Shown here piece by piece: positions 30,223 through 56,630 of a stretch of 64,000 bases of DNA. Every line of letters starts with the position of its first letter. Within the stretch, counting starts at the first letter, position 1. The notes beneath the pieces were generated by a model that made no database searches, was not told where the DNA came from, and saw only the letters and a program-made list of their open reading frames with translations. The stretch covers positions 16,988,001 through 17,052,000 of the forward strand of contig OX597834.1 in the NCBI GenBank assembly GCA_951406725.2, written 5' to 3'. Both the position numbers and the translations under genes were made by a program. The DNA comes from Octopus vulgaris. Taxonomy: Eukaryota.

Positions 30223-30295
30223 TTAAAGAAAATAATCTGGAACTGGGTGATCTGAATTTGGTTTTCTTTTCACGGGAGCCGGATCAAATTGTAAG
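30223..30295 (-). CDS. PP2A-C paralog exon 7 (terminal coding exon)
   Basis: TTTTCAG|C TTA CAA TTT GAT CCG...; (F)[23 protein letters not shown]; phase matches exon 6. Confidence 0.93.
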
Positions 30296-30976
30296 CTGAA
30301 AAATAAATGGAATAAACAGATTTTGTTTCAGTATTTCTAATTAACAAAAACAAACAAACAAACACACAAACAAATGTAGGTGGTTGTGTGGCAAGATGCT
30401 TCCTTCCCAGCCATATGGTTCTGGGTTCAATCACACTGTGTGGCATGTTGGTTAAATGTTTTCTACTAGAGTCTTAGGAAGACCAAAGCCTTGTGAGTGG
30501 ATTTGGTGGATGGAAACTGAAAGAAGCCTGTCATGCATGTGTGTGTGTGTATGTGTGTATCTATGTGTCCCCCCTGCCACCACCACTTGATAACTGGTGT
30601 TGGGCTGTTTATGTCCCCATAACTTAGCAGTTTGGCAAAAGAGAGTGATAAAATAAGTACCAAGCTTTAAAAAAAGTACCAGGATCAATTCATTTGACTA
30701 AAATTCTTCAAGAGACTGCCCCAGAATGGCCACAGTCTAATGACTGAAACAAGTAAAAGATAATTGGCGATTGGAGCGTTGGGCTCAGTCCCATTGAAAC
30801 TTCAAGACTTCTTAGGGCAACTGGAAATCCCATGCAAGATTGATGTCTTGCAAACAGCAGCCCTTATTGGGCACAGCGCACATCTTAAGGAAAGTATTAT
30901 CTGTCTGAGGTCCTTGTTGTGACTTGACAGATGACTAACAACTCTGGTACATTTTTACCTACACTGTCTTACAAAG

Positions 30977-31064
<88 letters not shown>

Positions 31065-56000: not shown

Positions 56001-56191
56001 ACTATGTTTATATATATTTTTTTTGTGTGTATATTTATGTATTTGTCCGTCTTTCCTTTATGGAATGTATATTTACGTATGTGCATGTATGTATATATAC
56101 AGCACTCGCTGGAGACAAGACCTATGAACTAAAATTTATATTAATAAAAAAAATTAATTAAACTGTGAAGTCATTCTTTTTCTATTTTCAA

Positions 56192-56226
<35 letters not shown>

Positions 56227-56630
56227 AATATACATGCACCAAAAATGCATAAATATAAGTGATTCGGCCGAAAATAAATTAAAGAAATAAAAATGTTTTA
56301 CGGAAATTGCCGAACACTTTCATAATTCCTTTACCTTTATCGAAAAATGCCAAAAAAAAAAAAAAATTACATCGCGAGTCTCCAACTTCGATTAATTTTT
56401 TTCAAAGATTATTTTTTGTTAGAGATTTTTTAGCTTTATGTATCCTTTATGTATGATGATGGAGAACAACAAACAACTAAATTATTATTGTTATTGTGCG
56501 CACGAAAGTTTAAAAAGTTATTTACTTTTTCGCATAATGTTTTCACTTGAGTCTCAGAGAGTCGGTTACATTCATATAACTGTTTAATCCATAGATCTAA
56601 TTCTTTAACTGTGCACTGGCTGTCAACCAT
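30223..56630 (-). CDS. Divergent PP2A catalytic subunit paralog; complete, 310 aa; join(56630..56526, 42170..41961, 37014..36841, 35089..35000, 33047..32886, 31694..31576, 30295..30223)
   Basis: Seven GT-AG exons of 105/210/174/90/162/119/73 nt = 933 nt, open frame to TAA. Motifs GDIHG, GDYVDRG, GNHE, HGG, LWSDP, SPRG, RAHQ and [10 protein letters not shown] are intact; C-terminus PDYFL. Confidence 0.93.
30763..31062 (+). mobile_element. R4/Dong-type non-LTR retrotransposon 3' end with (AAT)n tail
   Basis: [33 protein letters not shown]...[10 protein letters not shown] (with frameshifts), short UTR, long (AAT)n. Confidence 0.7.
31063..31567 (+). mobile_element. Second R4/Dong-type LINE 3' end (restriction-like endonuclease domain) with (AAT)n tail
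   Basis: [51 protein letters not shown]...VPVIVGSLG...[16 protein letters not shown]. Confidence 0.8.
31576..31694 (-). CDS. PP2A-C paralog exon 6
   Basis: [39 protein letters not shown] plus TT; 119 nt; CAG|GGT...TT|GTAAGT. Confidence 0.94.
32455..32835 (+). mobile_element. RTE-type LINE 3' UTR copy with internal ~67-bp tandem repeats
   Basis: TGGCACGTAA recurs at 32461, 32528, 32595 and 32658, followed by the common core and (GAT)n tail. Confidence 0.75.
32886..33047 (-). CDS. PP2A-C paralog exon 5
   Basis: [60 protein letters not shown]...GAG|GTAATT. Confidence 0.94.
33324..33545. mobile_element. piggyBac-type MITE
   Basis: TTAA-CCCTTTAGTGTTT ... AAATGCTAAAGGG-TTAA; partial copies at 1-160, ~47514 and ~61805. 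Confidence 0.75.
33552..33810. mobile_element. hAT-type MITE
   Basis: TIR CAGTGGTTCTCAACC / GGTTGAGAACCTATG; partial copy ~58396-58580. Confidence 0.7.
35000..35089 (-). CDS. PP2A-C paralog exon 4
   Basis: [36 protein letters not shown]...GAA|GTATGT. Confidence 0.93.
35201..35611. mobile_element. MITE with GG termini and ~8-bp TSD (Merlin-like)
   Basis: TIR GGATCTTTTCAGTTTGAC / GTCAAACTGAATAGATCC; flanks CAGCAACT / CATCAACT; internal CCCTAACCCTAA. Confidence 0.65.
36841..37014 (-). CDS. PP2A-C paralog exon 3
   Basis: [64 protein letters not shown]...GAA|GTAAGT. Confidence 0.95.
37428..37805 (+). mobile_element. Young 5'-truncated RTE-BovB-like LINE
   Basis: Open frame [21 protein letters not shown]...YFGHIMRR...[14 protein letters not shown]; (GATA)n tail; 13-bp TSD GTCTGATGTTGAA at 37415-37427 and 37806-37818. 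Confidence 0.9.
39951..40430. repeat. Minisatellite, ~4.5 copies of a 107-bp unit
   Basis: GATAAGACAGTAAG starts at 39951, 40058, 40165, 40272 and ~40375. Confidence 0.95.
40787..41045. repeat. Near-perfect ~120-bp inverted repeat (foldback element)
   Basis: TTGCAGCGTGGAAGGTGTTT...ACCGCGACCTGTT / AACAGGTCGCGGT...AAACACCTTCAACGCTGCAA with ~21-nt spacer. Confidence 0.92.
41212..41605 (+). mobile_element. Non-autonomous Helitron
   Basis: A|TCTTTATATATAAAA 5' end; 3' hairpin CCCGAGCAACGCCGGG followed by CTAG|T; no TSD. Confidence 0.8.
41961..42170 (-). CDS. PP2A-C paralog exon 2
   Basis: [76 protein letters not shown]...AAG|GTACGT. Confidence 0.95.
43078..43410 (+). mobile_element. tRNA-derived SINE of another family
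   Basis: Head TGGCTTAGTGGTTAGAG...GAGTTCAATTCC; core TGCTCCAGTTCACCCAGCTG; related minus copy near 2290-2510. Confidence 0.65.
43875..44272 (+). mobile_element. Best-preserved copy of the dominant octopus-type tRNA-derived SINE
   Basis: Full head-body-microsatellite-tail; many related copies (e.g. ~12600, 15850, 24230, 26940, 30375, 32040, 35800, 39230, 41630, 44610, 45980, 59010). Confidence 0.88.
44278..44556. repeat. Foldback element with long imperfect inverted repeats
   Basis: CAAAATGGGACAA...GGTCATTCGAAGTTTTCTTTCC / GGAAAGAAAACTTCGAATGACC...TTGTCCCATTTTG; related single arm at ~42425-42605. Confidence 0.75.
48772..48918. mobile_element. MITE carrying degenerate telomere-like (TTAGGG)n
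   Basis: GGGTTAGGGTCAGGGTATAGGGCTAGGG... inside termini homologous to 13085-13172. Confidence 0.6.
51090..51530 (-). mobile_element. Penelope-like element reverse transcriptase remnant
   Basis: Reverse-strand [38 protein letters not shown], and a KVI*FNLP segment resembling IIWFNPP. Confidence 0.7.
51790..52487 (+). mobile_element. RTE-type LINE 3' end: ORF terminus plus long 3' UTR with ~65-70-bp tandem units
   Basis: DLQTLGLT...[17 protein letters not shown], then ~5 GTGCCGGTGGCAC-type units, the common core and (GAT)n tail. Confidence 0.75.
53500..54370 (+). mobile_element. CRE-clade-like non-LTR retrotransposon C-terminal remnant (Zn knuckle plus restriction-like endonuclease)
   Basis: [82 protein letters not shown]; degenerate and split by a MITE. 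Confidence 0.7.
54107..54338. mobile_element. hAT-type MITE with perfect 8-bp TSD
   Basis: TSD GATCATAG at 54099-54106 and 54339-54346; TIR CAGTGCTTTTCAAAC / GGTTGAAAACCACTG; internal 31-bp duplication. Confidence 0.88.
55400..56350. repeat. Two old foldback structures at the start of paralog intron 1
   Basis: TTTGTTTCCTCATAACTTTCAGAAAAAT / ATTTTTCTGAAAGTTATGAGGAAATAAA (~55416-55697) and TTCGGCAATTTCCGTAA / TTACGGAAATTGCCGAA (~55823-56314). Confidence 0.65.
56526..56630 (-). CDS. PP2A-C paralog exon 1
   Basis: [35 protein letters not shown]; donor AAA|GTAAAT. Confidence 0.92.

Follow-up and report, generated by a model that had tools for sequence, protein, structure and literature searches.

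A diverged tandem copy of the PP2A catalytic subunit with a rewritten C-terminal tail in Octopus vulgaris

Protein phosphatase 2A has a catalytic subunit (PP2A-C) that hardly varies, since a single subunit has to serve all holoenzymes. Elsewhere in the PPP family, lineage-specific and faster-evolving copies with changed tails are known, such as the testis-biased PP1 and PP4 duplicates of Drosophila and mammalian PP1-gamma2. Residues 294-309 of the PP2A-C tail bind a pocket at the interface of B55 and the scaffold (PMC10765524) and wedge between subunits in the B56 holoenzyme (PMC11087950). Mitotic phosphorylation of T304 disrupts B55 binding (PMC8630191), and residues Y91, Y267, R294, and R295 form the docking groove for PR70 (PMC3698643). 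Papers are cited, here and below, by their PubMed Central (PMC) numbers. Here we describe a 64,000-nucleotide stretch of the Octopus vulgaris genome (contig OX597834.1, positions 16,988,001 to 17,052,000; hereafter the window) in which six-frame motif scans find two PP2A-C genes in tandem, both on the minus strand: a conserved gene, copy B, and a diverged one, copy A. The balance of the evidence leans toward copy A being an active phosphatase that matures normally, has a shifted choice of B subunit, and is free of the T304 switch, and judged by its residues it would likely act on a set of targets unlike that of the original PP2A.

An intact gene with a complete catalytic core

Copy A occupies positions 56630-30223 of the minus strand and consists of seven exons whose lengths (105, 210, 174, 90, 162, 119, and 73 nt) equal those of copy B in 7/7 cases. 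All six introns are bounded by GT-AG and the 933-nt frame encodes 310 residues and a stop, in agreement with the first-pass annotation, which had described a second full seven-exon PP2A-C gene with an open frame and canonical splice sites. A phmmer search aligns copy A without gaps to structures of human PP2A C-alpha with an E-value of 2e-171, so the resemblance to PP2A is not a matter of chance. Residue numbers here follow the human protein and are one lower than the copy A index, as given by that alignment.

The PPP motifs GDxHG, GDxVDRG, GNHE, HGG, and RAH are complete in copy A, and the residues characteristic of the family (D57, H59, D85, N117, H167, H241, H118, R89, and R214) are all present. 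The metal ligands, as listed in PMC9748336, are kept at 6/6 positions, as are R89, H118, Y127, and R214, and the earlier claim that the catalytic and metal-binding motifs survive is therefore upheld. Copy A equals copy B at 5/5 of the PTPA and ATP contacts named in PMC3915903, and at 10/11 residues that PMC3644067 names for the helix switch and the loop switch, the exception being I186K. The loop at 264-270 is unchanged (7/7 residues) and P305-L309 is retained, so that the terminal DYFL for methylation by LCMT1 is present at the level of sequence. The combination of a full TPDYFL with a conserved 294-304 tail, a defining feature of PP2A-C, is absent from copy A, which belongs to PP2A-C by descent. 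The four motif changes that had been quoted earlier are there, with valine at position 304 and DYFL kept. An identity as a pseudogene or retrocopy was rejected because of the open frame, the six introns, and a ratio of nonsynonymous to synonymous divergence (dN/dS) of about 0.07. An AlphaFold2 model built from a 30-row alignment was uninformative, with a mean predicted local distance difference test score of 58. The features of copy A are as follows.

56526..56630, minus strand: exon 1, with the start codon; 12/35 residues unlike copy B
41961..42170, minus strand: exon 2; D57, H59, D85, and R89 kept, R70S and S75I; 6/70 residues differ
36841..37014, minus strand: exon 3; N117, H118, and the helix switch; 9/174 nt and 2/58 residues differ from copy B
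35000..35089, minus strand: exon 4; H167 kept, D175Y, D184F, I186K, and V189I; 8/30 residues differ
32886..33047, minus strand: exon 5; W200, R214, and H241 kept, loop 204-211 rewritten, A216L, D223C, N229C, and V244A; 16/54 residues differ
31576..31694, minus strand: exon 6; loop 264-270 kept, W250M, 277-282 rewritten; 10/40 residues differ
30223..30295, minus strand: exon 7, coding part with the stop; 10/23 residues differ from copy B
29996..30222, minus strand: 3' untranslated part, covered by spliced contigs from runs X3 and X19; its limit is the contig end, with no transcript end shown
57179..57256, minus strand: possible promoter, with one motif that we take to be YY1-like and one that we take to be ETS-like, given with no chance control

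Two tandem arrays lie in introns of copy A, one of 107 bp × 4.5 (94% matches) in intron 2 (window 39950-40430) and one of 67 bp × 3.3 in intron 5 (window 32461-32676).

Evidence of splicing comes from four runs (X3, X15, X17, and X19) aligned to positions 29800-33400, which hold exons 5-7 of copy A. In X3, a contig of 708 nt (record 25) joins exons 5, 6, and 7 and the 3' flank with 0 mismatches. In X19, from another organism, a contig of 774 nt (record 19) has exons 5 and 7 at record positions equal to those in X3, 118 letters apart, the exon 6 piece not itself being among the pieces listed. The X15 and X17 contigs are genomic and continue from exon into intron. The intronless contigs from X3 and X19 thus indicate that junctions 5-6 and 6-7 are spliced as predicted, so that the call for spliced transcripts is answered for the part of the gene that these contigs cover. 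The contigs match the copy A exons within 0-2 letters per piece, and the variant tables are swamped by repeats. No run is recorded as RNA or carries a tissue label; 14/24 rows were guessed to be RNA (share 0.70, four studies), X3 alone of the four aligned runs among them, and the four run rows that share no words with copy A are no evidence of absence. The tissue-restricted, possibly germline, expression suggested in the first-pass annotation is kept here as a conjecture.

Ancestry, divergence, and present selection

Copies A and B are identical at 246/310 residues in a gap-free alignment (79%). When the differences are polarized by Sepia, 63/64 are derived in copy A and one in copy B (p 7e-18), and copy B itself does not vary among three Octopus species and is unlike Sepia at 1/310 sites. 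Twenty-four of the changes in copy A fall at sites that are invariant in 22/22 other PP2A proteins, two mammalian rows among these being partial at the N terminus. The changes concentrate at 175-189, 204-211, 222-231, 277-285, and the tail. Outside exon 3, the synonymous distance (dS) between the copies is 1.47 (bootstrap 1.0-2.8, near saturation) and the nonsynonymous distance (dN) is 0.17; exon 2 has a lower dS than the other exons, a difference that is not significant (p 0.06). Copy A has changed at 39/97 sites where copy B is unlike octopus PP4c, compared with 17/199 sites where copy B and PP4c agree (p 3e-10). At core sites common to copy B, PP4c, and a PP6-type protein copy A keeps 136/142 residues, the changes being G161E, D184F, D205T, A216L, N229C, and V244A. 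Copy A has 13 cysteines to the 10 of copy B, D223C and N229C being new, and 63 charged residues to 75; its redox sensitivity could differ from that of copy B.

A tree of 26 proteins (LG+G4) places copy A inside the PP2A clade (100/100), apart from the PP4c of octopus and a PP6-type protein from a plant, and as sister to cephalopod copy B (97.6/100). The octopus PP4c gene (G000:C28:20229982-20248700, L022-L024), whose tail ends in KKPQPDYFL, served as the outgroup. Copy A also shares the cephalopod states T26, Q47, and R74, all outside the homogenized exon described below. Identity as a PP4 or PP6 catalytic subunit was rejected, since copy A falls outside these groups and a separate PP4c gene exists. 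The copy A protein is already in NCBI, letter for letter, in models of O. vulgaris and O. sinensis that bear a generic PP2A name. Protein searches with 797, 8000, and 78 candidates found no protein of this type outside Octopus, the best matches there reaching no more than 74% to exon 5. As evidence of absence this is weak, being limited by annotation coverage, a point that concerns squid and other octopods. Judged from these comparisons, copy A is an old duplicate of the cephalopod lineage, seen only in three Octopus species, and the earlier statements that it is lineage-specific and does not belong to an ancient PPP subfamily both stand.

Models from O. bimaculoides differ from copy A by 5 changes in 270 comparable residues, where about 77 would be expected under neutrality. 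With a published genome-mean dS, this gives a dN/dS of about 0.065 (0.13 if dS were 0.06), far from the value near 1 that had been named as a check on the gene. In O. bimaculoides, exons 1-5 and 7 are as conserved as in O. vulgaris, and the 294-304 tail has changed at 1/11 positions between the species. On the stem, dN/dS was about 0.25 and fell to 0.065 later (p 1e-4 with synonymous change split evenly). These figures indicate that copy A is now under purifying selection. Its rapid divergence is an old burst, not the present state, and the first-pass description of a rapidly diverged gene holds for the past and fails for the present.

Exon 3 departs from the rest of the gene. Codons for the same residue differ between the copies at 7/55 positions there and at 82/181 elsewhere (p 6e-6), and the likeness extends into the intron.

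36832..37324, minus strand: homogenized tract in copy A, exon 3 and about 310 bp of the upstream intron
7434..7978, minus strand: matching tract in copy B, 428/550 alignment columns identical

The likeness ends 10 nt past the exon 3 donor. The tract was likely homogenized by gene conversion from copy B, the direction being suggested by the identity of copy B with Sepia in this segment, and the exon 3 dS of 0.20 (0.05-0.38) dates the event near or before the species split. Conversion would have kept the metal-binding and helix-switch segment of exon 3 ancestral. Alternatively, the likeness may reflect a constraint shared by both copies on a linear splicing element. A repeat origin was rejected, as the intron part matches only copies A and B lengthwise and the 16 other matches are short T-rich pieces. 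RNA structure or editing found no support as an explanation, with fold z-scores of -0.68 and -0.06 and two-sided changes at 0/115 pairs, and the introns flanking exon 3 contain no inverted match over 13 nt. In copy A, a fragment at window 37225-37794 (plus strand), which we take to be LINE-like (long interspersed nuclear element) and which has no Pfam hit, abuts the upstream end of the tract; in copy B, a repeat at about 7990-8150 abuts it. With repeats at the tract ends in both copies, the true tract may have been longer. Neither this tract nor the exon 6 gap considered below had been seen in the first-pass annotation.

Converted tracts beside retained differences also recall pairs of resistant and sensitive paralogs, and copy A might be insensitive to phosphatase inhibitors in the diet, okadaic acid for example, and give protection from them. 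A216L and V244A adjoin the active-site residues R214 and L243, as that explanation would have it. However, the 264-270 loop with C269 is unchanged at 7/7 residues, as are Q122, I123, H191, and W200, all of which we assume to bind inhibitors, and we regard this explanation as highly improbable.

The C-terminal tail and the choice of partners

In the tail of copy A, ten of the 11 residues at 294-304 are changed, with P298 and PDYFL kept, and 8 of the changed sites are invariant in 22/22 outgroups.

30226..30273, minus strand: tail codons 294-309; R294V, R295K, G296R, E297K, H299N, V300S, T301D, R302H, R303P, and T304V
30250-30252, minus strand: T301D codon
30241-30243, minus strand: T304V codon

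Several of these positions have been altered in the human protein, with results collected in a review (PMC9707111). T301D reduced binding of B55-alpha to <0.15 and 0.5 in two studies (review table), T304A raised B55 binding 1.5 to over 2-fold, and T304D, T304K, and T304N abolished it, while truncation at T301 (T301Stop) left striatin binding at 0.7-1. The emphasis formerly laid on T304V was therefore misplaced, the relevant changes being T301D, R294V/R295K, and the 294-304 segment as a whole.

A tandem duplication that included all seven exons was followed by one-sided divergence (63 to 1), in which the catalytic core and the PDYFL end were kept and the partner-facing surface was rewritten, and later by purifying selection. 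Further steps can be proposed from the residues. The copy A protein would be matured and methylated like ordinary PP2A-C, because the PTPA contacts and DYFL are kept, and would still bind the single scaffold subunit. T301D, together with loss of the basic pattern at 294-303, would disfavor B55, R294V and R295K would weaken the contact with PR70/PR72, and the enzyme would be biased toward the partners that least need the tail, namely striatin/STRIPAK and some B56. T304V would remove the mitotic phosphorylation switch. The altered holoenzyme assembly suggested by the first-pass annotation is thus retained as a prediction, on better grounds than before and with different residues in charge of it.

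The same divergence could instead have arisen by relaxed drift in a partitioned or dosage copy that is expressed in some tissue or stage, joins the usual holoenzymes, and is now under ordinary purifying selection. Most of the changes lie where PP2A-like enzymes vary, dN/dS between the copies is well below 1 (dN 0.17 and dS 1.47 outside exon 3), and PDYFL is kept. Moreover, a genome search for the scaffold and B56, which left out B55, PR72, striatin, and PTPA, found one scaffold locus, two B56 loci, and no partner duplicate, and thus no dedicated partner for copy A; a second match in the scaffold search reads as a protein that we take to be SF3B1-like. Against such drift, 10/11 residues of the 294-304 tail changed and then only 1/11 between species, eight of those sites are invariant in all outgroups, and T301D is a change known to lower B55 binding. 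We consider a dosage copy unlikely, though it deserves serious weight.

Several points weigh against a shifted choice of B subunit under lasting selection. Methylation of the human T301D protein was 0.7-1 in one study and abolished in another (PMC9707111). By analogy with T304A, stronger B55 binding would be expected of T304V, which may offset the effect of T301D, and single human mutants need not predict how a tail with ten changes behaves. The fold tolerates change at the sites where PP2A and PP4 differ, and the 39/97 pattern therefore fits relaxed constraint as readily as new function. R70S and D280S affect residues that we presume to be scaffold contacts. The genome-mean dS behind the ortholog ratio, 0.123, is not copy A's own dS, and the fall in dN/dS has a p of 0.12 if all synonymous change is assigned to copy A. 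Finally, exon 6 is absent from 3/3 O. bimaculoides models, each of which ends differently.

The missing exon 6, together with the six changed core sites common to PP2A, PP4, and PP6 types, could mean that copy A is decaying, or that it serves, with weak activity, as a decoy sequestering chaperones or scaffold. The open frame, the full set of catalytic residues, the spliced contigs in two organisms, the 5 changes against about 77 expected, and the conservation of O. bimaculoides exons 1-5 and 7 all speak against it, and we consider it very unlikely. The conservation of the other exons also makes loss of exon 6 less favored than an assembly gap; a gap is the explanation we favor, and a recent loss may be the other. 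Between copies A and B, at window 27765-27812 (minus strand), lies a short piece that resembles an exon, has a good acceptor, and matches the end of O. bimaculoides model P0121 at 13/16 residues. The piece may serve as an alternative terminal exon whose use omits exons 6-7, or the model may have used it to patch an assembly gap.

Copy B, its surroundings, and comparison with known phosphatases

Exons 1-4 of copy B lie within the window (20498-1167) and exons 5-7 lie 5.6-8.1 kb beyond its start.

20394..20498, minus strand: copy B (conserved PP2A-C) exon 1
9630..9839, minus strand: copy B exon 2
7443..7616, minus strand: copy B exon 3
1167..1256, minus strand: copy B exon 4

A search of the octopus genome with exons 2 and 5 returned loci A and B as the only close matches, followed by PP4c and by genes that, from their sequences, we take to be calcineurin-like and PP1-like. 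More distant PPP-family exons, at 41-57% identity, were seen at L007 (G000:C4) and on G000:C26, C16, and C1, one of them PP1-like and divergent. In one gene model, P0233 (L012-L015 on G000:C21, 13-43 kb past the start of the window), the TPDYFL of copy B is replaced by a 110-residue tail assembled from five small scattered exons by way of a donor inside exon 7; this model looks like an annotation artifact. About 43 and 50 kb beyond the window start (L015) lie two long open frames of RRM type, one on each strand, with 314 and at least 191 residues, the first apparently intronless; presumably ELAV/Sex-lethal-like, they are possibly another local duplicate pair.

No literature on copy A was found in the papers searched, although it may be listed in subscription papers or in the supplements to papers on cephalopod genomes; the available part of the supplement to a transcriptome of testis and ovary (PMC11202624) has no per-gene table. 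Copy A adds a duplicate of a core signaling enzyme to the gene novelties of the octopus. With the catalytic residues kept and 24 otherwise invariant sites changed and then conserved, it offers a natural experiment on the residues that serve each partner. It natively carries T301D, the change with which human studies remove B55, and exchange of its tail or loops with those of ordinary PP2A-C opens the rules of B-subunit choice to direct test. Copy A would further illustrate a way in which PP4, PP6, and Ppg1-like enzymes may have diverged from PP2A.

Among described systems the closest is PP2A-C itself (PPP2CA/PPP2CB, Drosophila mts; PPP family, Pfam PF00149), with which copy A shares its exons, catalytic motifs, 264-270 loop, and PDYFL. 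Yet copy A is only 79% identical to its parent, although the octopus and cuttlefish parents differ at a single site, its TPDYFL is broken at T304, and its tail (294-304) and loops 204-211 and 277-282 are rewritten. The Drosophila and mammalian duplicates derive from PP1 or PP4, many as retrocopies, whereas copy A is an intron-bearing tandem copy of PP2A.

Octopus PP4c resembles copy A in a tail that ends P-x-P-D-Y-F-L with no threonine at position 304, and the two have V58I, I186K, V237I, I259V, and R303P in common. Copy A might have left the scaffold for a partner complex of its own, as in PP4c or yeast Ppg1, and be a nascent fourth PP2A-like phosphatase. However, at the sites where copy B and PP4c differ, only 5/39 changes go to the PP4c residue, by which general convergence on PP4c was rejected; copy A is less PP4c-like than copy B (187 vs 199 of 296), and 5/7 of the residues we presume to be scaffold contacts are kept. 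We consider this departure from the scaffold distinctly unlikely. With 63% identity and different exon borders, PP4c also stands apart from copy A, which lies inside the PP2A clade.

The fungal Ppg1 of the STRIPAK/Far complex is a PP2A-derived catalytic subunit that exists beside ordinary ones and serves a special complex (PMC7738187). By analogy, copy A may work like yeast Ppg1, probably without being its ortholog. In a bolder form, which we think unlikely, copy A would be a fourth PP2A-like phosphatase that binds neither B55 nor PR72, is deaf to the T304 switch, and works in STRIPAK or some other complex that does not depend on the tail; it would represent an animal counterpart of Ppg1 at an early stage of divergence, its metal-binding exon kept ancestral by conversion from copy B. 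The position of copy A as sister to cephalopod PP2A (97.6/100), in a tree that included no Ppg1 sequence, argues against orthology to Ppg1.

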